Notes: generated by a model from the sequence alone, not told the origin. A stretch of DNA of 64,000 nucleotides from Candidatus Limnocylindria bacterium (GCA_036003765.1 DASYSC010000012.1:4787-68786), one strand, 5' to 3'. Numbered from the stretch's first letter, positions 5,597 through 22,286 are shown. Made by a program: numbers and translations.

Positions 5597-6178
<582 letters not shown>

Positions 6179-6181
6179 CGC

Positions 6182-7363
6182 ATAGCCACCACCGACACGG
6201 AGCGGCGCCAGATCGCGGAATCCACTGGCTACGCGCTCCCTACGATCGAGGCCGAAGAGGGCGAGGTCGAGGAGCTCATCCTCAACATGGGGCCGCAGCA
6301 TCCGTCGACACACGGCGTGCTCCGGCTCGTTCTCAAGCTCTCCGGCGAGAAGATCGTGGAGTGCGTTCCCGTGATGGGCTACCTGCACCGCGGGCTCGAG
6401 AAGATCTTCGAGTGGCGGACGTTCCATCAGGGAATCCGATACGCGGACCAGGCGGACTACGTGTCGAACATGCTGAACGAGCACGCCTACGCGGGCGCGA
6501 TGGAGGCCATCGGCGACATCGACGTTCCGCGTCGCGCCGAGTTCATCCGCGTGATCGTCGACGAGATGAGCCGCTGCGCCTCACACCTCGTCTGGCTCGG
6601 GACCTACGGTCTCGACGTCGGTGCGACCACACCCATCCTGTGGTGCTTCCGCGATCGCGAGGAGATCCTGGACATGCTCGAGGAGCTTTGCGGCTCGCGC
6701 ATGAACTTCAACTACTACCGGCCGGGCGGCGTGCTCTACGACTTTCCCCCGGGCTGGATTGGAAAGCTCTCCCGGTTCCTCGAGCGCTACGAGAAGCACA
6801 TCGAGGAGGACTACGTCACGATCCTCGACCAGAACGAGATCTTCCTCGAGCGGACCGTCGGCGTGGGCACGATCTCCCCGGAGCTCGCGAAGGCGTACGG
6901 GCTCACCGGTCCGATGCTTCGCGGCTCAGGCGTGGACTGGGACCTGCGTCGCGACCGCCCGTACTCGATCTACCCGGAGCTCGCTTCGCTGAAGCCCGTC
7001 GTGCTCGCCGAAGGCGACGCGTACGCGCGCTACCGCGTGCGGCTCGGTGAGATGCGGCTCGCGATCGCGCTCATCCGCGAATGCCTCGACAAGCTGCCCG
7101 GCGGTCCGGTCCGCGCGCGGCTCGGCCACGTGTGGAAGTGCCCCAAGGGCGAGGCGTACTACACGGTCGAGGGCGCGAAGGGCGAGGTCGGGATCTACAT
7201 GATCAGCGACGGCCGGAGCCCGAACCCGTTCCGCGCGAAGATGCGCGGCCCCTCCTTCAGCAACCTGCAGATCCTGCCGTGGCTTCTCAAGGATCGGCTC
7301 GTCGCCGATGCCGTCGCGATCCTCGGCTCGATCGACATCGTGCTTGGAGATGTCGATCGGTGA
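6182..7363 (+). CDS. nuoD: NADH-quinone oxidoreductase subunit D-like (49-kDa/Nqo4 type, no NiFe ligands)
   Basis: LNMGPQHPSTHGVLRL, GYLHRGLEK and a C-terminal SIDIVLGDVDR are complex-I-type motifs, and both hydrogenase CxxC pairs are absent. The first canonical start is ATG 6287, but the conserved N-terminal stretch (TIEAEEGEVEELILN) lies upstream in frame with no ATG/GTG/TTG/CTG. ATA 6182 has AAGGTGGA 7 nt upstream. The 5' end is therefore uncertain (6182-6287). Confidence 0.85.
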   Translation: MATTDTERRQIAESTGYALPTIEAEEGEVEELILNMGPQHPSTHGVLRLVLKLSGEKIVECVPVMGYLHRGLEKIFEWRTFHQGIRYADQADYVSNMLNEHAYAGAMEAIGDIDVPRRAEFIRVIVDEMSRCASHLVWLGTYGLDVGATTPILWCFRDREEILDMLEELCGSRMNFNYYRPGGVLYDFPPGWIGKLSRFLERYEKHIEEDYVTILDQNEIFLERTVGVGTISPELAKAYGLTGPMLRGSGVDWDLRRDRPYSIYPELASLKPVVLAEGDAYARYRVRLGEMRLAIALIRECLDKLPGGPVRARLGHVWKCPKGEAYYTVEGAKGEVGIYMISDGRSPNPFRAKMRGPSFSNLQILPWLLKDRLVADAVAILGSIDIVLGDVDR

Positions 7364-7374
7364 CTGTTCCACGA

Positions 7375-7472
7375 CGCCGGCCACTCGACCGAAACCCTCT
7401 CTACGCGACGGGGACCCCCCGGCCTCCGGCCGGCTCCCCATCTCGCGGGGGCCCTCGGTCGAGTGGCCGGCG
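7375..7472 (+). repeat. intercistronic palindromic/structured element, copy 1 (nuoD to next gene)
   Basis: An 18-bp perfect outer stem (CGCCGGCCACTCGACCGA / TCGGTCGAGTGGCCGGCG) encloses a 62-nt core, aaccctctctacgcgacggggaccccccggcctccggccggctccccatctcgcgggggccc. The core is nearly identical to 52318-52380. Confidence 0.65.
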
Positions 7473-7493
7473 GCGCTGCAGTGAGGTCTCCCA

Positions 7494-8213
7494 ATGAGAG
7501 GAATCATTTCCGGCATGCTGCGGACACTCGAGCACTTCGTGCGACCGCGTCCGGTCACTCGGAAGTATCCGTATGAGAAGCGCGATCTTCCGGAGCGGTC
7601 CCGTGGGCTCATTGCTCTTCTGCTCGAGCCGGAGACGAGCATCTTCAAGTGCGAGTCGTGTCTCATGTGTGAGAAGGCGTGCCCGCCGCGAGCGATCTCT
7701 ATCTCCTACACATTTAAGAACGGCTTCCGCAAGCGCCCACCGCTCGCGCCGCGCGCGTCTTACTACCGGATCCGCATGGTGCAGACCGCGCCGTACGGTG
7801 ATCGCCGACCGCAGTCCACCGCCGTGACGACCATCCCGGCGGAGGATGAAGATCGCTTGGATCTGGGCCCGGTCCGTCGTGTGCTGCGGGAGACCCCGAA
7901 GGGCGCCGACCGGTTGACGCGCGTTCTCTACGCGACGAATGCCGCATACGGCTACCTGCCCTGGCGCGCCGCGGAGCTCATCGCGGCCGAGTTCGGGAAG
8001 ACCATGACCGACCTGTACACGGCGGCGTCTCTCCTCGCGAACTTTCGCGGGGCCCCCGACGGCAAAGGGACGGCGATCCCGCGCGGAGGCCGCAGGTACA
8101 CCGGCAACCTCGGCGTCGCGGGCGTCTGGCCCGAGGCGTCACCGCCTCCCGCGCACGACGACCTGCACGAGGACGAGATCCATCACGTCCTCGAGCCGAC
8201 CTTTGCCCGCTAG
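7494..8213 (+). CDS. chimeric NuoI-like (single 4Fe-4S motif) / NuoE-N-terminal-like protein
   Basis: N-terminus VTRKYPYEKRDLPERSRG...CESCLMCEKACPPRAISI matches the NuoI start and its first CxxCxxCxxxCP. No second Cys motif is present. C-terminus LTRVLYATNAAYGYLPWRAAELIAAEFGKTMTDLYTAASLLANFR resembles the helical N-domain of NuoE/HoxE without the 2Fe-2S thioredoxin-like domain. Confidence 0.6.
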   Translation: MRGIISGMLRTLEHFVRPRPVTRKYPYEKRDLPERSRGLIALLLEPETSIFKCESCLMCEKACPPRAISISYTFKNGFRKRPPLAPRASYYRIRMVQTAPYGDRRPQSTAVTTIPAEDEDRLDLGPVRRVLRETPKGADRLTRVLYATNAAYGYLPWRAAELIAAEFGKTMTDLYTAASLLANFRGAPDGKGTAIPRGGRRYTGNLGVAGVWPEASPPPAHDDLHEDEIHHVLEPTFAR

Positions 8214-9408
8214 CACCGCGCCGCGGCTCCTCGATGGGGAAGCACGCGGTGCGCTCGAGCGCGCGCGGTCGACGGCTATCGACGAGCTCATCCAGATCGT
8301 CGAACGGAGCGGGCTCCGCGGCCGCGGGGGCGCGGGCTACCCCTTCGCCGAGAAGCTTCGCGCCGTCCGGCGGAACGTCGACGGCGGCGAGGTGTACCTC
8401 GTGGCGAACGGTTACGACGCCGACCCGGCAAGCCCGCTCGCCCGAACCCTTCTCACGCGCAACGCCGCCAACGTGCTGCGCGGTATCGCGATCGCGGTGC
8501 ATGCGGTCGGCGCGACGCAGGCGTACCTCTACCTGCACCCCGAGGCGATCGATGCCCGTGCCGCAGCGGAGCGGGCGATCCTGGAGCTCGGCGGGGACCT
8601 CGGAGTCCCGATCGAGATCGCGCTCGGCCCAGGCGGCTTCATGGGTGGCGAGGAGTCGGCCCTGCTCGCGGTGCTCGAGTCCCGCCGCGCGATGGCGCGC
8701 CAGCGCCCGCCGTATCCGGCCGCGCAAGGGCTCCGGCTTCGGCCGACGCTCGTGTCGAGCGTAGAAACGCTGGCCTGGCTACCGCTCGTCATTGAGGAGC
8801 AGGCCCGAGCGAACACCAAGCTCGTCTCGGTGACTGGAGCGGTGAACCGGCCCGGCGTGTACGAGATCGTGCTCGGCACGCAGCTCGGCGAGATCCTGAG
8901 CGAGGCCGGCGGGGCGACCGGAAAGATCAAAGGCATCCACGTGGGTGGGCCGACGGGTGGCATCCTCGCATCGTCGAGGCTCGACACGCGGTTCGCCTTC
9001 GACGACCTTCGGGTCGCAGGCACGCACATGGGATCGGCGCAGGTCCGCGCGATCGCCGCGGGCACATGCATCGTCAACGAGGCGGCGACGCTCTTCGCGT
9101 ATCTGGCGCGGGAGAACTGCGCGATCTGCGTTCCGTGCCGCGTGGGCACAAAGCGCGTGCAGGGCATCCTCGAGAGTACGTACTCGGGCCTCGGTCGCGA
9201 GAGCGACCTCGCGTGGCTCGACGAGCTCGGCACGCACATGGAGCGGTTCTCGCTCTGTGGGTTCGGGATCACCGCACCCTCGATCCTCCGCACGACGATG
9301 CGTGAGTTCCCCGAAGACTACCGAGTGCACATTCAGGAGCGTCGGTGTCCCGAGGGCACGTGCAAGCCCGTGCGATCCCGCAGGTACGAGACGATGGTGC
9401 AGCCATGA
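8203..9408 (+). CDS. divergent NuoF-like flavoprotein (FMN site plus N3-type 4Fe-4S)
   Basis: GLRGRGGAGYPF (NuoF has GLRGRGGAGFP), GGFMGGEESALL...RPPYPAAQGL (NuoF has GAYICGEETAL...KPPFPA), CAICVPCRVGT...SLCGFG (CxxCxxC...C). The NADESEPG block is replaced by NGYDADPAS. Overlaps the previous gene by 11 nt. Confidence 0.75.
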   Translation: MPASTAPRLLDGEARGALERARSTAIDELIQIVERSGLRGRGGAGYPFAEKLRAVRRNVDGGEVYLVANGYDADPASPLARTLLTRNAANVLRGIAIAVHAVGATQAYLYLHPEAIDARAAAERAILELGGDLGVPIEIALGPGGFMGGEESALLAVLESRRAMARQRPPYPAAQGLRLRPTLVSSVETLAWLPLVIEEQARANTKLVSVTGAVNRPGVYEIVLGTQLGEILSEAGGATGKIKGIHVGGPTGGILASSRLDTRFAFDDLRVAGTHMGSAQVRAIAAGTCIVNEAATLFAYLARENCAICVPCRVGTKRVQGILESTYSGLGRESDLAWLDELGTHMERFSLCGFGITAPSILRTTMREFPEDYRVHIQERRCPEGTCKPVRSRRYETMVQP

Positions 9409-9613: not shown

Positions 9614-12022
9614 ATGAGTTTGCTCGAGAGATACACGCAGCCTGCGGAGTCGCAGATCCCCACGGTCTCGCACAGCGGCGAGATCCCAAGCGGTCAGCCG
9701 ACGTGCACGATCTGGATCGACGGGAAGGAAGTCACGGCGATCCCCGGCGAAGCGATCTTGCGAGCCGCGCAGCGCGCTGGGTTCGAGGTGCCGACGCTCT
9801 GCGACGACGAGAAGCTCGCTCCGGCCGCCGCGTGTCGCATGTGCCTGGTGGAGATCGAGGGCTACCACCGCCCGATGCCGTCCTGCCATTTGCCGGTAGA
9901 GCCCGACATGAGGATCACCCAGGCCTCGGAGTCGCTGTTCAAGCTGCGCCGCCAGAACCTCGAGTACATCCTCAGCGACCACAACGCCTACTGCATGCCG
10001 CCGTGCCAGATCAGCTGTCCGACGCACATCGACATACCCGGCTACCTGGAGCTCATGTCGAAGGGCCAACACGTGGAAGCGGCGCGCCTGGTCAAGGAGG
10101 TCCTGCCGTTCCCATACATGCTGGGACTCGTGTGCCCAAAACCGTGCCAGGAGGTCTGCCGCCGCGGGCTGGTCGAGGAAGAGATCGCCATCTGCCAGTG
10201 CCACGGCTTCACCGGCGAGCTCGTCATGGAAATGGACAAAGCGCCCACGCCATTTCCGCAGCTCGCGGCGACAGGAAAGCGCGTGGCTGTCGTCGGCGCG
10301 GGGCCGGCCGGAATGACCGCGGCGTACTACACAGCGCTCAAGGGTCATGCCGTCACGGTGTTCGACATGATGCAAAAGCAGGGCGGCATCGCGCGGTATG
10401 GCATCCCCGAATACCGCCTCCCGAAGGTGAAGCTCGACAAAGAGCTGAACTCTGTGTGGCAGCTGCGGGACACGGACTTCAGGGGCGGGATGATGCTCGG
10501 CCGCGATTTCAGCCTCGACGATCTCTTCACCCAGGGTTACGACGCGGTCTTCCTCGGGATCGGCGCGTGGCGCTCGAACGAGCTCCGGATCCCTGGCGAG
10601 GATCTCCCTGGGGTGATCGAGGCGATCAACTACCTCCGCATGAACGCGGAAGGCGACCCTGTACCGGTTGGGAAGGGCCAGAAGGTCGTCGTCATCGGCG
10701 GCGGGTTCACCACGTTCGACTGCTCGCGGACCTCGCGCCGCCTGGGTGCGGACGTCACGGTCGTGTATCGGCGGTCGCGCAAGGAGATGGGCGCACATTA
10801 CAGCGAGGTCGACGATGCTGAGCACGAGGGCATCAAGCTGGAGTTCTTCGCCTCGCCGGTGAAGATCGTCGAGAAGAATGGTCGCGTCGGCGGGATCGAA
10901 TTCCAGCGCATGGCGCTCGGCGAGCCCGACGCATCGGGACGGCGTCGCCCGGTCCCGATCGAGGGCTCGAACTTCGTGATTGAGTGCGACACCGTCATTC
11001 CCGCGATCGGCCAGGTGCCCAATCTCGACTTCTTCGAGCGCGAGTCGGGCGTGAAGAAGACGAGGCGCGAAACGATCGTCACCAACGGCGCGCTTATGAG
11101 CGACCGGCCCGGGGTGTTCGCCGGCGGCGACTGCCAGATGGGCGCGGTCACCGTGATCCAGTGCGTCGCGCAGGGCAAGCTCGCGGCGAAGGCCATCGAT
11201 CGCTACCTGGCGGGCGACGACATGGCGCGCGTCGCCGCGGAGATAGCGGAAGAGGAAGCGGTCCCCGAGCTCATCGACATCGTTCCGTACAAGCCCGAGG
11301 AGCCGCAGGTGCGTATGCCGATGCTCCCGTTCAAGGAGCGCGAGCTCAGCTTCCAGCTCATCGAGAACGGCTACGACAAGGCCGCCGCTGAGAAGGAGGC
11401 CGCGCGGTGCCTGCAGTGCGTATGCCCCGATGTCGGGCGCTGCCACCTGCAGCGGCTTTCACTCGAGCACGGTCTCACTGACAACCGCTTCCACCGCGCG
11501 GAGCCAGTCGACTACCACGACTACGAGTACGACTTCAGTCACGACTTCATCCTTCGCGACCTGAACAAGTGCATCAACTGCACGCAGTGCGTCCGGATCT
11601 GCCGCGACGTGATCGGTGCGAACTGCTACGGCCTCATGGGCGGCGGGTACGACTCGATCGTCACGACGCCGTGGAACGTGTCTCTCAAGTACACCGACTG
11701 CGTGTCCTGCGGCGCGTGCGCCGAGACATGTCCGACCGGGGCGCTGATGATGCGCGAGCGGGACCTGCAGACCTACGAGCTCGACATCGTCCGCTGCATC
11801 TACTGCGGCGACTGCGTGGAGGTCTGTCCACATGGCGCGCTCGGCGAAACGCCGAACTTCGAGCTTTCGACGTACGGCCGCTTCGGGAGGACGGTGCTCG
11901 CGAAAGAAGAGCTCGCCGCCGCGCGTACGTGGAAGCCGTCGGAGGAGATTCCGCTCGATGGTCACAACGCGCCGCGCCCGCCGGAGATCCGGCCGCCCGG
12001 ACCGCCGCGCTGGGGCGCCTGA
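9614..12022 (+). CDS. multidomain Fe-S flavoprotein: 2Fe-2S ferredoxin + GltD-like NAD(P)H/FAD oxidoreductase + NuoG/HoxU-like 4Fe-4S + 2x4Fe-4S ferredoxin
   Basis: N-terminus CTIWIDGKEV...PTLCDD...AAACRMCLVEIEG (NuoG/HoxU 2Fe-2S). CMPPCQISCPTHIDIPGY...LVCPKPCQEVCRRG and KRVAVVGAGPAGMTAAYY...GIPEYRLPK (GltD/SudA type). CLQCVCPDVGRCHLQ and KCINCTQCVRICRDV (NuoG N5/N4-like). CVSCGACAETCPTGAL and CIYCGDCVEVCPHGAL (ferredoxin pair). Confidence 0.8.
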   Translation: MSLLERYTQPAESQIPTVSHSGEIPSGQPTCTIWIDGKEVTAIPGEAILRAAQRAGFEVPTLCDDEKLAPAAACRMCLVEIEGYHRPMPSCHLPVEPDMRITQASESLFKLRRQNLEYILSDHNAYCMPPCQISCPTHIDIPGYLELMSKGQHVEAARLVKEVLPFPYMLGLVCPKPCQEVCRRGLVEEEIAICQCHGFTGELVMEMDKAPTPFPQLAATGKRVAVVGAGPAGMTAAYYTALKGHAVTVFDMMQKQGGIARYGIPEYRLPKVKLDKELNSVWQLRDTDFRGGMMLGRDFSLDDLFTQGYDAVFLGIGAWRSNELRIPGEDLPGVIEAINYLRMNAEGDPVPVGKGQKVVVIGGGFTTFDCSRTSRRLGADVTVVYRRSRKEMGAHYSEVDDAEHEGIKLEFFASPVKIVEKNGRVGGIEFQRMALGEPDASGRRRPVPIEGSNFVIECDTVIPAIGQVPNLDFFERESGVKKTRRETIVTNGALMSDRPGVFAGGDCQMGAVTVIQCVAQGKLAAKAIDRYLAGDDMARVAAEIAEEEAVPELIDIVPYKPEEPQVRMPMLPFKERELSFQLIENGYDKAAAEKEAARCLQCVCPDVGRCHLQRLSLEHGLTDNRFHRAEPVDYHDYEYDFSHDFILRDLNKCINCTQCVRICRDVIGANCYGLMGGGYDSIVTTPWNVSLKYTDCVSCGACAETCPTGALMMRERDLQTYELDIVRCIYCGDCVEVCPHGALGETPNFELSTYGRFGRTVLAKEELAAARTWKPSEEIPLDGHNAPRPPEIRPPGPPRWGA

Positions 12023-12732
12023 TCGCACACGATCGGCGCCTCGCGTGGGACGCGTGCCTCAACGTGCGCGATCTCGGCGGCCTTCGCTGCGCGGGTGGCG
12101 TGATCAGGAGCGGGGTCCTCGTGCGCGCATCGACCTTGGGATTGCTCACGACGGCAGGGTCGGTCGCGATCCGCGCCCACGGCGTCAGGACGGTCATCGA
12201 TCTGCGTGGGCCGGATGAGGTGACGGCACTGCCAAACCCGTTCGGGCTGGGCCTCGCGTACCGCAACGTCCGCGTCGATGGGGAACACACGCTGAAGCTG
12301 CACGAACATGCGATCGCCGGAACGATGGCGCATCAGCTCGCCGACCTCGCGCGGCCGGGGAGCGGGCTGCGAGCGGCACTCGCCGCGATCGCGAGCGCGG
12401 ATCCGGCCGTCGTCGTCCATTGCCAGGCCGGGCGGGACCGCACCGGGATCGTCGTGGCGCTGCTGCTCGCCGCGCTCGGTGTCGCCGACGACGACATCGT
12501 CGCCGACTACTGCGCGAGCGACGCCGAGCTCGCCGACGAGTACGCGCGCTTCAGAGCGGAGCACCCGGAAGTCGCCGCCGATATGGCGGAGCGCCAGGCC
12601 CGGCGTGCGTGGGTGATTGGCCAGCTCCTGGCGGCCGTGCGTACGGAGCACGGCGATGCCGAGCGCTACCTCAACCTTATCGGCGTGCGATCCGACGAGA
12701 TCAAGCGGCTGCGAGAGATGCTCGTCGCATGA
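12019..12732 (+). CDS. protein-tyrosine-phosphatase-like enzyme (CX5R, Y_phosphatase3 type)
   Basis: NVRDLGG near the N-terminus and the active-site loop VVHCQAGRDRTGIVVALLL. Start uncertain: CTG 12019 overlaps the upstream TGA, and GTG 12064 is the first canonical option. The track ORF from 11569 is a shadow frame over the upstream gene. Confidence 0.7.
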   Translation: MIAHDRRLAWDACLNVRDLGGLRCAGGVIRSGVLVRASTLGLLTTAGSVAIRAHGVRTVIDLRGPDEVTALPNPFGLGLAYRNVRVDGEHTLKLHEHAIAGTMAHQLADLARPGSGLRAALAAIASADPAVVVHCQAGRDRTGIVVALLLAALGVADDDIVADYCASDAELADEYARFRAEHPEVAADMAERQARRAWVIGQLLAAVRTEHGDAERYLNLIGVRSDEIKRLREMLVA

Positions 12733-13052
12733 CCCGTCGCGACCGCGTCGAGTCGCGGATCCGGCGCTCCGGACCGATCACCTTCGCGGACTTCCATGGA
12801 AGCCGCGCTCTTCGACCCCAAGGTAGGTTACTACACGACCCGCGCGTCACTCGGGTACAACGGCACGACGTCACATCCGCGGATCTCGACATCGTGCGAT
12901 GCATTTGGTTCGGCGACTGCGTGGAGGTCTGCCCCCACGGCGCGCTGGGCGAAACGCCGAACTTCGAGCTTTCGACGTACGGCCGCTTTTGGGCGGACCG
13001 TGCTGGCGAAGGAGGAGTCGCCGCGCCCGGTCCGCCACGCTGGGGGGCGTGA
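12729..13052 (+). pseudogene. chimeric duplication remnant: midA 5' fragment fused to the 3' end of the 802-aa Fe-S flavoprotein gene
   Basis: 12729-12888 parallels midA 14347-14509 (GPITFADF/MEAALFDPKVGYYTTRASLGYNG/VTSADL, read across two frames). 12885-13052 parallels 11780-12022 (DIVRCIWFGDCVEVCPHGALGETPNFELSTYGRF...PGPPRWGA*), with an internal deletion, a frameshift and a lost ferredoxin Cys (CIYC to CIWF). Confidence 0.7.
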
Positions 13053-13070
13053 GCGTCGGACCGCAGAGCG

Positions 13071-14150
13071 CTAGAGGGATGGCGGGCTCGGTAGCGGCGG
13101 GAGCGGCGGGAGTAGCCCTGGCGGGGATGGCGGCGGGTTGGGTGTTGGTGTGGGCGTCGGCGGAGGTGTGGGGGTCGGCGTCGGAGGCGGCGTCGGCGTG
13201 GGGTCCGGTCCGGGCCCCCCGCCAAAGAGGCACGCGCTGGACGCAGGCTGTTCGAACGCGCGGATATGTGAGTCGTATCCGTCCCTGAGCCAGAAGACCG
13301 ACACGCCGTAACTCAGGTTGTCGCATTCGAGATCCTGACTTGAGGACGAGCCGTTGATGGTGTAGGGGTACGCGCCGACCTTGCCGCCGGTCTTGGTGAA
13401 CTCAAAGATGTATTTGCATCCCGCGATGCTGACGAACAGGTGCGCGCCTCCCACCGCGACGCCGCTGCTCTGGCTGTACGGACACTGCGGAGACATGTCG
13501 TTCGGCGGAACGTTGATGTCGATGTAGGGCGTGCCGTCGACGATCGCGGCGGTGCCCTGCGCGTCCGCGTATGTGTGGTAGTGGTAGATCCGGGCCCCGG
13601 CATCGGAGCTGTACCAAATCGTGTCGTCCGCGCGGTCGTACGCGACCTTGACTTCGTTTGGGTAATCGCCGACCGGCTGGTAGCCGGGGCGGTCGTTGTT
13701 CGGATCGATCGTGAATATCAGCGTCGCCGCGCCGGATTTCCTGAGCAGGTACATCGATAATCCGTCCCCGCCGATCGCCCAGAACGCGTCGCGGCCGCGG
13801 TCGTACGCCAGGGTCATGATGCCCGATTGGGCTCCCGTGATGGTGATGTCGACCTGGCCGGTCGCGTTGCCCGACGAGCCCGCGGGTGGCGCGTTGATCC
13901 GATGGAGCTTCGAGTTGCCGTATCCGACGTGGTAGAGGTACGTCCCGTCGAACGCGACGCTCGGCGCGATGTTCTCTGGATACGCCTCATTCACGACCAC
14001 GTCGGCGACGAGGGCACCCGCGGCGCCCGCGGCACGTTGGGCTGTGACCAGAGCGAGCGGGAAGGCGAGCAGAGCCGCGATCAAGAGCGTCCCCGCGTTG
14101 CGCGCGAAGGGATGGCGCATAGACGAAATCGGCACGCGCTGGGGTGCCAT
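13071..14150 (-). CDS. secreted repeat protein of unknown function with C-terminal Pro/Thr tail (paralog of 20176-21072)
   Basis: Signal-like N-terminus (MRHPFARNAGTLLIAALLAFPLALVTAQRAAGA, with an alternative ATG at 14120). Collinear similarity to the 20176-21072 product (SPSV.FDG.YLY, YD.GRDAFWA..GDGLS.YLL.KSG, YDRADDT.W, RIYHY.TY.DAQG, ECDN.SYGVSV.W). Ends in PTPTPPPTPTPTPPP... Confidence 0.65.
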   Translation of the reverse strand: MAPQRVPISSMRHPFARNAGTLLIAALLAFPLALVTAQRAAGAAGALVADVVVNEAYPENIAPSVAFDGTYLYHVGYGNSKLHRINAPPAGSSGNATGQVDITITGAQSGIMTLAYDRGRDAFWAIGGDGLSMYLLRKSGAATLIFTIDPNNDRPGYQPVGDYPNEVKVAYDRADDTIWYSSDAGARIYHYHTYADAQGTAAIVDGTPYIDINVPPNDMSPQCPYSQSSGVAVGGAHLFVSIAGCKYIFEFTKTGGKVGAYPYTINGSSSSQDLECDNLSYGVSVFWLRDGYDSHIRAFEQPASSACLFGGGPGPDPTPTPPPTPTPTPPPTPTPTPNPPPSPPGLLPPLPPLPSPPSL

Positions 14151-14346
14151 GGGCTTGATTCGAACCCAGCCGGATTAAGGCCGGTTGGGGCGTCCGCATG
14201 AGGTCGGGGGGCGCATGCGCCTGTCCAGTCGAACGGCCCGCCGCTTTCAATACGGCGGCAATCCTCTGTCAGGCGCCTGGGCTGTCGCACCGGGCGGTCT
14301 TGTCTTCCCTCTCTCGCTGGCTCGGCGTGCGTATACGCTCGGGTCC

Positions 14347-15459
14347 GTGGCGAACATCGGCGAACGCATCGTCGCGCGGGTCCGCGCGCGTGGCCCGATC
14401 ACGTTCGCCGAGTACATGGAAGCTGTGCTCTACGACCCCGACGACGGTTACTACACGACGCGCGCGTCGGTCGGATTCGACGGCGACTACATCACCTCGG
14501 CGGATCTCGGACCGGCTTTCGGTCGGGCGCTCGCGAGGGCGGTCGTGGATCTTTGGACCCTGATCGGAAAGCCCCATGCGTGGGACCTGGTCGAGGCTGG
14601 GGCGGGGAGGGGAATCCTCATGCGCGATCTCCTCGTCGCACTCGAGCGCGAGCGGCCCGAAGCCGCTCGCGGAGCACGGTCCGCGATCGTCGAGGTGTCG
14701 CCACGCATGCGCGCGCAGCAATCCCTCGCACTCGAAGGACGCGACCTGCGATGGGCATCGGTCGCGCACAGCCTCGCGCCGATCCAGGGAGTGCTCTTCG
14801 CGAACGAGGTCCTCGATGCCTTTCCCGTTCACGTGCTGACGCGTACCGCCGACGGCGTGCGCGAGGTCTTCGTCGGAGAAGCGAACGGGATGCTCGTGGA
14901 GGTCTTGCGCCCACCGAGCGCGGATCTGCGCTGGCGGGTTCCGGAGTCGGTCCCGGTCGGCGGCCGGTGGGAGACCAGTCCCGCCGCGGAGGGCTGGGTC
15001 GCGAGCCTCGCCGGGGCGCTGGTCTCGGGCTACATCATCCTCGTCGATTACGGCGGCGAGGAGAGCGATCTCCTAGCGCGCGAGGGCGCGGGCACGGTGC
15101 GCGGATTCGCGCGTCATCGTCTCGTGGCGGATCCGCTGGCCGAGCCAGGTCGGCACGACCTCACGGCGAGCGTCGACTTCAGCGCGATCCAACGCGCCGC
15201 GGAAGGGGCGGGCCTACGCTTCGCGGGTTCGGCGACGCAGCGGGATGTGTTGCTCACGCTCGGGATCCGTGACGTCACTGCGCGGCCGTCGACACCGATC
15301 GAGCAGCTGCGCGCCGCGAGCCGCCGTTCGGCCATCGACGCTCTGCTCGATCCCAACGGGCTCGGCGCATTCAAGGTCGTGTGCTTCGCGAAGGAGGCGC
15401 CGACCGAGGGCCTACGGATGTTCGGCGCGGGGAGCGCTACGGGTTCGAGGCGAGGGTGA
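14347..15459 (+). CDS. MidA/NDUFAF7-family SAM-dependent methyltransferase (DUF185)
   Basis: GPITFAEYMEAVLYDPDDGYYTTRASVGFDGDYITSADLGPAFGRALA...LVEAGAGRGILMRDLL is the typical MidA N-terminal block plus the SAM-binding GxGxG. GTG 14347 was chosen by homology with the duplicated fragment. The track ORF starts at 14185. Confidence 0.8.
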   Translation: MANIGERIVARVRARGPITFAEYMEAVLYDPDDGYYTTRASVGFDGDYITSADLGPAFGRALARAVVDLWTLIGKPHAWDLVEAGAGRGILMRDLLVALERERPEAARGARSAIVEVSPRMRAQQSLALEGRDLRWASVAHSLAPIQGVLFANEVLDAFPVHVLTRTADGVREVFVGEANGMLVEVLRPPSADLRWRVPESVPVGGRWETSPAAEGWVASLAGALVSGYIILVDYGGEESDLLAREGAGTVRGFARHRLVADPLAEPGRHDLTASVDFSAIQRAAEGAGLRFAGSATQRDVLLTLGIRDVTARPSTPIEQLRAASRRSAIDALLDPNGLGAFKVVCFAKEAPTEGLRMFGAGSATGSRRG

Positions 15460-20175: not shown

Positions 20176-21072
20176 TCATCCGCCGCCGTACACGCAGAGG
20201 TTCGGCGACGGCTGTTCGTAGGCGCGAATCTCGCCAAAGAAGGCATTCTTCACCCAGATGACCGACACGCCGTAGCTCACGTTGTCGCACTCGAAGTCGC
20301 CGATCGCAGAGGCTGAGATCTTGAACGAGGCGACCTTCACACCCGCGCGCGTGTACTGGAAGTAGCGCGCGCAGCCACCCGCACCGATGAGGAGATACGG
20401 GCCGCCGACGGCGATGGCGCTGCCGATCGAGTACCCGCACTCGGCCGTCATGTCGTTCGGCGGGACGCTGACGTCGATGAAGGGGGTCGACGCGAGGACG
20501 GCATGTCCCTGAGCGTCGGGGTACGTCTGATAGTGGTAGATGCGCGGCCACGCGTCCGGGCCGATCCAGAGCGTGTCGTCCGCGCGATCGTAGTTGAGCT
20601 TCGACTCGGTGCAAAAGTTCCCGGGCTGGCACTGGTAACCCGGACGGCCGTTCAGCGGATCGATCATGAAGATGAGGACCGCCACGCCCGACTTGGCCAG
20701 CAGGTACACCGAGAGCCCGTCACCCGCCGTGGCCCAGAAGGCATCGCGTCCGGCGTCGTACGAGATCCCGATCACCCCTGAGGGAATGCCCACGATCGGG
20801 ATGTCGATGTGGCCGGTCGCATCGTGCGCGCCACCCGGCGGTGGCACGTCGATGCGGTGCAGCAGGTGCCCCGCGAACTCGGCGTAGTAGAGATAGCGCC
20901 CATCGAACCCGACGCTGGGCGAGATGCCCAGGGGCCAGACCGTCGCCCCCTCAGGCGTGAGCACGTCCGCGACGAGGTCGCCGGGGGCCGCCCGGGCCGG
21001 CGTCGCGGGTTGCAGCACAACGAACGCGACGACCAGGACCAGCGTCAGAGCGCGCGGCAGGTGTCTTTCCAT
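20176..21072 (-). CDS. secreted repeat protein of unknown function (paralog of 13071-14150)
   Basis: Signal peptide MERHLPRALTLVLVVAFVVLQPATPARA from ATG 21072, 2 nt after the wecB stop. Collinear with the 13071-14150 product and lacks its Pro/Thr tail. The track ORF extends to 21342 over wecB. Confidence 0.65.
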   Translation of the reverse strand: MERHLPRALTLVLVVAFVVLQPATPARAAPGDLVADVLTPEGATVWPLGISPSVGFDGRYLYYAEFAGHLLHRIDVPPPGGAHDATGHIDIPIVGIPSGVIGISYDAGRDAFWATAGDGLSVYLLAKSGVAVLIFMIDPLNGRPGYQCQPGNFCTESKLNYDRADDTLWIGPDAWPRIYHYQTYPDAQGHAVLASTPFIDVSVPPNDMTAECGYSIGSAIAVGGPYLLIGAGGCARYFQYTRAGVKVASFKISASAIGDFECDNVSYGVSVIWVKNAFFGEIRAYEQPSPNLCVYGGG

Positions 21073-21074
21073 CT

Positions 21075-22286
21075 CTACGCACCTCCATTCGGTACGCTTG
21101 GCCGCACGCTGGCGACCGGAGCCCATACGAAATCTGGGGTCGCCACGACTGCTTGCGACGGGCGATCGCTGCCCGAGCCTTGAATGCCCGCGCTCAGCGC
21201 CTCGACGATCCGCGCGGACGCGCGTCCGTCGCCGAAGGGACTCGCGACATGGGCCATCCGGCGATATGCCTCGCTGTCCTTGAGCAGCCGGCGAGCTTCG
21301 CTCACGATGCGCGAGGCGTTCGTGCCGACCACGCGCGCGCATCCCGCCTCGACGGCCTCCGGCCGCTCGGTCACCTCGCGCAGCACCAGCACCGGCCGGC
21401 CGAGGCTCGGAGCCTCTTCCTGGATCCCGCCCGAGTCGGTGAGGATCAGCGTGGAGCGATGCATGAGCTGAACGAGCGACGCGTAGTCGAGCGGCGGGAT
21501 GAGGCTGATGTGGTCGTGGCCGCCGAGGTGCTCGCGGACAGGATCACGGACGCTCGGGTTCAGATGCACCGGATAGACGACCTGGATGTCGTCGACCTCT
21601 TCTACGAGCCGAAGTACGGCTTGGCAGATCGCGGCGATCCCTCGGCCGAAGCTCTCCCGTCGGTGGGCGGTGACGAGCACGATGCGGCGGTGGAGCGCAA
21701 GCCCGGCCAGCGGACCGCGGGCGATGTCGTAGTCGAGTGTGAGGACATGGTGCAGCGCATCGATGCCGGTGTTCCCGGTCACCCGGACCGTCGCCGGCGA
21801 GCATCCTTCCCGGAGCAGGTTCTGACGCGCGCGCTCCGTTGGAGCGAAGCGCAGATCGGCGAGGACGTCGATGAGGCGGCGATTCGCTTCCTCCGGAAAT
21901 GGCCGGCGCATGTCGTTGGTACGCAGGCCGGCTTCCACGTGGGCGACCGCGATGCCCCGGTAGAACGCGGCGAGAGCCGCCGCCAGCGCGGTCGTCGTAT
22001 CACCCTGGACTACGACCCACGACGGTCGGCTCGCATCGATCACCTCGGTGACGCCATCGACCACGCCCGCCGTAAGCCCGGAGAGTGTCTGGGCCGGCGT
22101 CATGAGATCGAGGTCGTAGTCCGGATCGACGTCGAACAGCTCGAGGATCGGTTGCAGCATCTCGCGGTGCTGGCCGGTCACGCAGACGCGCACGTCGATG
22201 CCCGCGCGGGCCCGGAGTGCGCGGATCAGTGGGGCGAGCTTGACTGCCTCGGGACGGGTGCCGAGCACCACGAGGACGCGCAGCAT
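21075..22286 (-). CDS. wecB: UDP-N-acetylglucosamine 2-epimerase (non-hydrolysing)
   Basis: VLGTRPEAVKLAPL, CVTGQHREML, VVQGDTTTALAAALAAFY..I.VAHVEAGLRT and DSGGIQEEAPSLGRPVLVLR are classic WecB/MnaA blocks. Confidence 0.9.
   Translation of the reverse strand: MLRVLVVLGTRPEAVKLAPLIRALRARAGIDVRVCVTGQHREMLQPILELFDVDPDYDLDLMTPAQTLSGLTAGVVDGVTEVIDASRPSWVVVQGDTTTALAAALAAFYRGIAVAHVEAGLRTNDMRRPFPEEANRRLIDVLADLRFAPTERARQNLLREGCSPATVRVTGNTGIDALHHVLTLDYDIARGPLAGLALHRRIVLVTAHRRESFGRGIAAICQAVLRLVEEVDDIQVVYPVHLNPSVRDPVREHLGGHDHISLIPPLDYASLVQLMHRSTLILTDSGGIQEEAPSLGRPVLVLREVTERPEAVEAGCARVVGTNASRIVSEARRLLKDSEAYRRMAHVASPFGDGRASARIVEALSAGIQGSGSDRPSQAVVATPDFVWAPVASVRPSVPNGGA

Follow-up and report, generated by a model that had tools for sequence, protein, structure and literature searches.

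Genomic association of a bacterial MidA/NDUFAF7-family methyltransferase gene with nuoD in Candidatus Limnocylindria

The window analyzed here is a stretch of 64,000 nucleotides from the genome of Candidatus Limnocylindria bacterium (GCA_036003765.1, DASYSC010000012.1:4787-68786), a soil member of the Chloroflexota represented by a metagenome-assembled genome (G000) of 3.0 Mb in 231 contigs that is 83% complete. The gene under study, midA, encodes a bacterial member of the MidA/NDUFAF7 family of S-adenosylmethionine (SAM)-dependent methyltransferases, as judged by both sequence and fold, and the window also carries the nuoB and nuoD genes of complex I (Table 1). We consider it probable, at roughly two chances in three for the proposal as a whole, that MidA dimethylates Arg-71 of NuoD near the iron-sulfur (Fe-S) cluster N2 with SAM and so aids the assembly of complex I. 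The named homologues of the window MidA come likewise from "Candidatus Limnocylindria bacterium" (Chloroflexota).

In the proposed reaction, MidA would transfer two methyl groups from SAM to the guanidino group of Arg-71, presumably as a symmetric dimethylation. The target arginine would sit in the HRGxEK loop, a few angstroms from the cluster N2 held by NuoB, and the substrate would probably be NuoD that is free or has just been made, either not yet docked with NuoB or in the course of docking. The dimethylation may tune or stabilize the N2/quinone site and help to assemble the single complex I. In Yarrowia, mutation of the corresponding arginine (R121M/K) destroys N2 (PMC8042128).

MidA and the candidate arginine of NuoD

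The midA open reading frame (ORF) extends from 14185 to 15459 on the + strand, with a probable GTG start at 14347. Its product matches Pfam PF02636 (Methyltransf_28) with an E-value of 3.2e-53 and a score of 181.2 bits (cut-off 23.3) over profile positions 2-247 of 249. At the sequence level it also matches solved structures of the DUF185/COG1565/MidA group, namely 1zkd (3.5e-37, 30% identity), 4f3n (6e-32) and Dictyostelium MidA 5ztz (4.5e-16). An AlphaFold2 model of the protein (predicted local distance difference test, pLDDT, 85.6; predicted template modeling score, pTM, 0.85) was searched with Foldseek and aligns over its full length with 4f3n (template modeling score, TM, 0.81), 1zkd (0.78-0.81) and Dictyostelium MidA 5ztz/5zu0 (0.78/0.73, E about 1e-24); the next-best folds are unrelated methyltransferases at TM ~0.4. 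The match takes in the 7-beta-strand methyltransferase core as well as the N- and C-terminal parts specific to the family. A first-pass annotation, made from the DNA sequence alone, had named the gene a MidA/NDUFAF7-type methyltransferase, and the PF02636 match and the fold similarity of TM ~0.8 uphold that name.

In an alignment of 12 sequences that are 34-71% identical to the window protein, motif I VEAGAGRG (G85, G87, G89) is invariant, and so are E116, ANEVLDAFP (N153, E154, D157, P160), DYG (D234, Y235), H257 and D271. From general knowledge of class I methyltransferases, we take these residues to serve in SAM binding and in the active site. The PF02636 gene is very widespread, is annotated as "SAM-dependent methyltransferase" and is without an NCBIfam model; Caulobacter and Synechococcus elongatus have it and E. 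coli does not.

The first-pass annotation had read the motif GYLHRGLEK in NuoD, with an arginine codon CGC, and had placed the methylated residue of NDUFS2 in the corresponding block. Both the motif and the codon are present in the sequence, the arginine being residue 71 when counted from 6179. The methylated peptide of bovine NDUFS2 is KCDPHIGLLHRGTEK, in which the modified residue is Arg-85 (PMC3750175), and it is NDUFAF7 that methylates Arg-85 (PMC3829151). In a HMMER alignment to the 430-residue mature mammalian chains, residues 30-317 of the window NuoD fall on residues 44-329, which makes window residue 71 position 85. The arginine therefore stands exactly at the Arg-85 position of NDUFS2, and the motif had been named correctly. 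Similarly, GYLHRGLEK aligns on GYLHTGFEK of Nqo4, with query residue 71 on chain residue 64; Rhein et al. regard Thr-64 of Thermus Nqo4 as orthologous to the methylated arginine (PMC3829151).

The best match of the window NuoD in PDB is the cyanobacterial NdhH (4e-103). The protein has GPQHPSTHG and a C-terminal DIVLGDVDR in place of the cysteine motifs of [NiFe] hydrogenases (the CxxC ligands are absent), and its quinone-site residues are present, with Y94 aligned to Nqo4 Tyr-87 and the histidine lying within GPQHPSTHG. The translation of nuoB contains the cysteine ligands of cluster N2, including GCPP.

HRGxEK is found in every midA-linked NuoD of the loci examined. The relative G035 has a second NuoD that is unlinked to midA and carries HTG (GFLHTGIEK), that is, threonine as in Thermus. 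Covariation of the arginine with midA was considered as a discriminator within the class and fails, since one family without midA (f4) keeps the arginine and G035, with its threonine, is the sole supporting contrast. The statement that the window NuoD keeps the target-type arginine is thus correct as to the residue, but the residue discriminates little: it is found in 11 relatives without midA and, unmodified, in E. coli. The arginine is needed for the proposed reaction, yet does not predict it. In family f4 (within relatives G040-G060; loci L086-L096), eleven near-complete genomes share this complex I operon, with GYLHRGIEK in NuoD, and have no midA anywhere; they provide a natural comparison of complex I with and without the gene.

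Association of midA with complex I genes

Among 61 relatives, 42 possess midA. In about 21 loci of same-family relatives it directly follows, on the same strand, the gene that we call geneX, the final structural gene of the peripheral-arm operon. The gap between geneX and midA in these loci is 5-80 nucleotides (nt) in 13 and ~600 nt in six, and a phosphatase gene lies between the two in a further two (L024, L025). The full operon, consisting of the inositol monophosphatase (IMPase) gene, nuoB, nuoD, the homologue of the window gene at 7494-8213, nuoF, geneX and midA, was found in G005, G028, G035, L107 and L108. In 10 genomes from distant families of the class, a single long nuo operon opens with midA and has the order midA, a 202-amino-acid (aa) ORF, nuoA, B, C, D, H, the 7494 homologue, nuoF, geneX, nuoJ, (K), L, M, N. 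Apart from f4, the families of the class have midA linked to this complex I, at one end of the operon or the other.

A pattern scan with the MidA alignment across 185,579 species representatives returned 80 midA loci from many phyla, and nuo genes lie within 10 kb of midA in 37 of these species-representative loci. An even sample of Nitrospiria contained 40 midA-bearing genomes, of which 25 have a same-strand nuoD 2-8 kb downstream of midA; in one Nitrospirota locus (L114) the midA stop codon precedes nuoA of a canonical operon by 15 nt. Among Cyanobacteriia, 55 of the sampled genomes bear midA, and in 11 of them ndhH is no more than 1.5 kb away, both gene orders being represented; the gap narrows to 36 nt in Aphanocapsa (L140). 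The ndh genes of cyanobacteria are dispersed, and these pairs therefore point to the NuoD homologue specifically. Single linked cases occur in Verrucomicrobiota, where midA is divergent from nuoB, in Acidobacteriota and in Acidimicrobiia, where nuoD-H-J-L-M-N is followed by midA ~1.3 kb downstream (L171). No link between midA and nuo was seen in two alpha-proteobacterial loci (L155, L167), in two loci of Firmicutes, or in most others of the 80.

By chance, a gene would fall no more than 10 kb from an operon of 15 kb in ~1% of genomes of 3-5 Mb, a figure to be set against counts from sampled genomes that are not phylogenetically independent. That the pairing recurs, both among relatives and in other phyla, excludes chance, and the variety of arrangements (at least five, over several phyla) argues for repeated selection of proximity. 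The association of midA with nuoD neighborhoods that had been proposed from the window alone is thus borne out by the same-family loci, the distant-family genomes, the Nitrospiria and the Cyanobacteriia counted above. The first-pass annotation had argued that an operon link to a NuoB/NuoD pair would amount to direct genomic evidence of NuoD as a substrate of MidA in prokaryotes; the genomic association in three phyla sustains the link, but the idea is not new and was implied by the dimethyl-arginine of Paracoccus Nqo4.

It is against this background that a role of bacterial MidA as a general or nucleic-acid methyltransferase has to be judged, in which case its proximity to nuo would be without functional meaning in this genome. 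Such a role draws on a 2025 study that found DNA methylation without a pattern when Wolbachia MidA was expressed in E. coli (PMC12455994), a result that its authors themselves call preliminary, and on the present state of the window midA as a separate unit behind an opposite-strand gene. A linkage to nuo or ndhH that spans three phyla and lies far above the chance level makes it very improbable.

The linkage could also mean that MidA serves complex I in another way, either by methylating another target (a different residue, NuoB, the geneX product or NuoI') or as a methylation-independent chaperone of NuoB-NuoD assembly. In Limnocylindria and Nitrospira it is indeed the whole nuo operon, and not nuoD alone, to which midA is linked, and the relatives without midA keep the arginine. 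In the 11 cyanobacterial genomes, however, the partner is ndhH alone, whichever the gene order, and experiment has established just one substrate for the family, the NuoD homologue, modified at this very arginine. A purely structural role is further opposed by the conservation of the catalytic and SAM-binding motifs. We consider this alternative unlikely and prefer dimethylation of Arg-71.

The same job, methylation of the NuoD arginine, is probably performed by MidA in many bacteria, as the distribution of the gene pairs suggests. A broader proposal is that MidA-dependent dimethylation of the N2-proximal arginine, rather than being peculiar to proteobacteria and mitochondria, could be an ancient and common part of how NDH-1-type complexes mature. 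It would be shared by Chloroflexota (the unusual complex I of the window included), Nitrospirota and the photosynthetic NDH-1 of cyanobacteria, with midA recruited beside nuoD or ndhH repeatedly (as first gene, as last gene or in a stand-alone pair); for this we judge the chances to be evenly balanced. Within Limnocylindria, recruitment was possibly from more than one midA lineage.

Two further observations concern the cyanobacterial loci. Four cyanobacteria (G061:C20, G082:C1, G105:C1, G124:C1) have two ndhH genes, of which the copy directly downstream of midA is lower-scoring and more divergent; this suggests a pair of midA and an ndhH paralogue that is distinct from the main ndhH. In Microcoleus (L158, 9054-9762), ndhH and midA are separated by two small ORFs, one with a weak match to an addiction-module antidote family that is below the Pfam cut-off; the two genes look like a former pair into which the ORFs were inserted.

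The displaced midA and the complex I of the window

Between the nuoD operon and midA in the window stand the phosphatase gene, a scar at 12729-13053 and an opposite-strand gene. Nucleotides 12732-12893 align to the midA 5' end at 14350-14512 (its first 165 nt) with two one-base indels, and the ATG of this midA copy overlaps the TGA of the phosphatase gene in the sequence ATGA at 12729-12732. At GATCTCG the midA fragment switches to a degraded and internally deleted copy of the geneX 3' end, starting from ~11777. We read the scar as the junction of a tandem duplication that took in the geneX 3' end, the phosphatase gene and the midA 5' end, and as preserving the ancestral phosphatase-midA junction. 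The first-pass annotation had taken the scar to indicate that midA was once the terminal gene of the operon, which agrees with the gene order of the relatives and exactly with the geneX-phosphatase-midA order of L024 and L025.

The copies in the scar are 75-90% identical to their source sequences and contain indels, which rules out a collapsed-repeat assembly artefact. The scar was found in the window genome alone and is absent from L103, which has the same order of geneX, phosphatase, opposite-strand gene and midA. A scar common to a sister species was considered for a fragment in G014 (C150) and rejected: the fragment is an ordinary midA 5' end at a contig end and continues past the junction. 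In G016, too, a midA 5' fragment sits where the contig ends. The position of the opposite-strand gene that displaces midA is also occupied in L006, L008, L018 and L103.

From these remains a history may be proposed. In the ancestor, midA would have closed the first operon and shared its transcript, preceded by the phosphatase gene in this genus. A segment that began in the geneX 3' end and ended in the midA 5' end would have been duplicated in tandem, the duplicated phosphatase copy would then have been replaced by the opposite-strand gene, and midA would have been left as a separate transcription unit, presumably acting in trans.

The phosphatase gene is itself worth a comment. It sits between geneX and midA in some genera (in the window, at 803-1495 in both L024 and L025, and at 3386-4075 in L103); its product is protein tyrosine phosphatase-like, and the gene was translationally coupled to midA, the ATGA overlap being kept in the scar.

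Several findings weigh against methylation of Arg-71 by the window MidA. The gene is now outside the operon, 7 kb downstream of nuoD and behind the opposite-strand gene, and a promoter and terminator scan around it gave nothing above background, with no sigma-70-like promoter upstream; a scan for the sigma-70 consensus is weak evidence in a Chloroflexota genome of 68% GC. The arginine belongs to a near-universal HRGxE motif, and the 11 f4 relatives without midA (94-99% complete) keep it as GYLHRGIEK, so the modification is not essential for a complex I of this type. The alpha-proteobacteria have the proven modification, yet their midA is not beside nuo (L155, L167); linkage is therefore neither necessary for the function nor proof of a modified subunit. 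Finally, the midA genes of families f1, f2 and f3 are just 34-39% identical, when the NuoD proteins of f1 and f2 are ~70% identical. With Acidobacteriota and Nitrospira included, pairwise midA identity is ~34-42%, and NuoD and geneX of f1 and f2 are at 70-79%. These values suggest either a much faster evolution of midA or its repeated replacement or recruitment within the class. In L048 (G037, sister family f2), midA lies ~1 kb behind geneX, and identity to the window is 39% for midA, 72% for NuoD and 79% for geneX. It is possible that this f2 midA was replaced by one from another lineage.

The loss of the operon link, the pseudogene fragment at the old site and the lack of a promoter-like site upstream might together indicate that the window midA is decaying or silent after the rearrangement, leaving a complex I with an unmodified arginine as in E. 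coli and f4, the more so as the modification is dispensable in relatives without midA. However, the ORF is intact, at 370 aa, and retains all the family-invariant residues, and the promoter scan carries little weight at this GC content. The window midA is moreover 79-85% identical to its sister-species orthologues, including those with the same rearrangement (L006, L008, L018, L103), which indicates purifying selection since the rearrangement. Silencing is in our view quite improbable, and we infer that midA is still expressed and available for the proposed reaction on NuoD.

A reading of the window NuoD as a paralogue within a soluble nuo-like cluster does not hold: nuoD is single copy in G000, and nuoC and nuoH-J-K-L-M-N are on contig C50 of the same genome (L040, 1681-8925, minus strand), nuoA being outside the search here. 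The organism thus has one complete membrane-bound complex I, split over two loci, and the window NuoD is its sole NuoD. A soluble hydrogenase-like module was also considered for the cluster and rejected, given the membrane-arm genes and nuoC elsewhere in the genome. The same subunit set is found across the class, elsewhere as one operon with nuoH directly after nuoD. Some same-family relatives (L053 = G035:C21:80000-99000; G034; G027) have a second nuo operon of canonical gene order; in G035 midA is not adjacent to it, and the NuoD motif of this operon was read for G035 alone.

The electron-input arm is unusual, with a half-NuoI/NuoE-like fusion, a NuoF-like subunit and the 802-aa geneX product with its GltD-type flavoprotein module; no separate nuoE, nuoG or nuoI was seen for this complex I. 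The domain order of geneX is 2Fe-2S, a GltD-like FAD/NAD(P)H module and a NuoI-like 2x[4Fe-4S] domain. By tblastn, the product of the gene at 7494-8213 weakly matches Nitrospira operons in their NuoI 5' region, and in distant relatives the homologue of this gene comes after nuoH.

Genes in the window were called from the G+C content at third codon positions (GC3) together with Pfam, and NCBIfam was also scanned (Table 1). The co-directional series on the + strand consists of PhoD, inositol monophosphatase, NfeD, flotillin, nuoB, nuoD, the gene at 7494-8213, the nuoF-like gene, geneX and Y_phosphatase3. Next, 3' of the phosphatase gene, come ~320 nt of pseudogene debris, the opposite-strand gene, midA and two response regulator genes on the opposite strand. 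The start codon of nuoB is uncertain, its frame being open from 5471, and that of the phosphatase gene is not fixed, with a frame open from 11569. The first ATG of nuoD is at 6287, and homology starts 5' of it.

Table 1. Features of the midA region (window coordinates)
Feature	Coordinates	Strand	Evidence
nuoB (PSST/Nqo6 homologue)	5597..6178	+	Pfam PF01058, E 1.7e-30; NCBIfam NF005012, 245.7 bits (cut-off 116)
nuoD (NDUFS2/Nqo4 homologue)	6179..7363	+	Pfam PF00346, E 8e-85; NCBIfam NF004739, 428.5 bits (cut-off 360)
CGC codon of NuoD Arg-71 in GYLHRGLEK, proposed methylation site	6389..6391	+	translation and alignment
Half-NuoI (one CxxCxxCxxxCP motif) fused to NuoE-like helical region, 239 aa	7494..8213	+	sequence reading; no Pfam match
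nuoF-like flavoprotein subunit	8203..9408	+	Pfam PF01512, PF10589
geneX, 802 aa	9614..12022	+	Pfam PF13510, PF14691, PF07992, PF12838, PF22117; synteny
Y_phosphatase3-family gene	12040..12732	+	Pfam PF13350, E 1.2e-46
Pseudogene fragment, degraded midA 5' end	12729..12893	+	two frameshifting indels; ATG overlaps phosphatase stop
Pseudogene fragment, degraded geneX 3' end (~11777-12022) with internal deletion	12880..13053	+	joined at GATCTCG
Opposite-strand gene, GC3 0.83	13071..14150	-	no Pfam or NCBIfam match
midA, MidA/NDUFAF7-family SAM-dependent methyltransferase, intact, 370 aa	14347..15459	+	PF02636; fold match

Between nuoD and the next gene, at 7372-7475, there is a near-perfect inverted repeat of 21 nt that is 95% complementary, with 62 nt between its arms. 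By tblastn, the opposite-strand gene at 13071-14150 has a related copy near the GDSL gene in L015, L018 and L103; together with 20176-21342 (-) of the window, this suggests that the gene may belong to a small paralogous family.

Relation to known systems

Human NDUFAF7 and Dictyostelium MidA share PF02636 with the window protein and the fold over its full length (TM 0.73-0.78 to 5ztz and 5zu0), and in the NDUFAF7/MidA systems, as in the window, the arginine of NuoD/NDUFS2 is at the identical HRGxEK position beside N2. The window MidA is ~22% identical to the Dictyostelium enzyme and has no targeting sequence. Its partner complex I is an unusual bacterial variant in which NuoI is split and a GltD-like module stands where NuoG would be, and the activity of the window MidA is a predicted one.

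Among bacteria, symmetric dimethyl-arginine has been found in Nqo4 of Paracoccus denitrificans and not in NuoCD of E. coli (Carroll et al. 2013, PMC3750175). Paracoccus has a bacterial complex I whose NuoD arginine is really modified, in an organism with a MidA homologue. E. coli NuoCD resembles the f4 relatives in that the arginine is present and MidA is absent, and the E. coli arginine is unmodified; the window genome differs from both in its intact midA. Reviews hold that the alpha-proteobacterial homologues probably methylate the same arginine, and the window protein matches one of these homologues, 1zkd (Shahul Hameed et al. 2018), with 30% identity. In the alpha-proteobacterial loci L155 and L167 midA is not beside nuo, whereas it is linked in Nitrospiria, Cyanobacteria and Limnocylindria, the window belonging to the Chloroflexota. 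According to a 2025 paper, the function of prokaryotic MidA is "only inferred in silico" (PMC12455994).

The linkage offers a functional annotation for a widespread gene that otherwise goes by "SAM-dependent methyltransferase", and it questions a proteobacterial origin of this protein arginine methylation. In mitochondria, the effect of the dimethyl-arginine on N2 is hard to separate from assembly defects. Bacteria with the enzyme gene beside its presumed substrate, among them genetically tractable cyanobacteria, are simple models, and the class adds families with and without midA that have the same arginine and the same complex I architecture.

The sole published mention of a nuo-NDUFAF7 operon that we found concerns Ca. 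Actinomarina (Acidimicrobiia), with none for Chloroflexota, Nitrospira or ndhH. There, an 11-subunit nuo operon followed by NDUFAF7 is noted in passing in a preprint on heliorhodopsins (10.1101/2021.02.01.429150). The Actinomarina operon is without an NADH module, whereas midA of Limnocylindria follows an electron-input arm with a NuoF-like subunit and a flavoprotein module. The enzyme-substrate pair is known from mitochondria and the modification from Paracoccus; what is new here is a documented case and the cross-phylum numbers, rather than a new kind of system.

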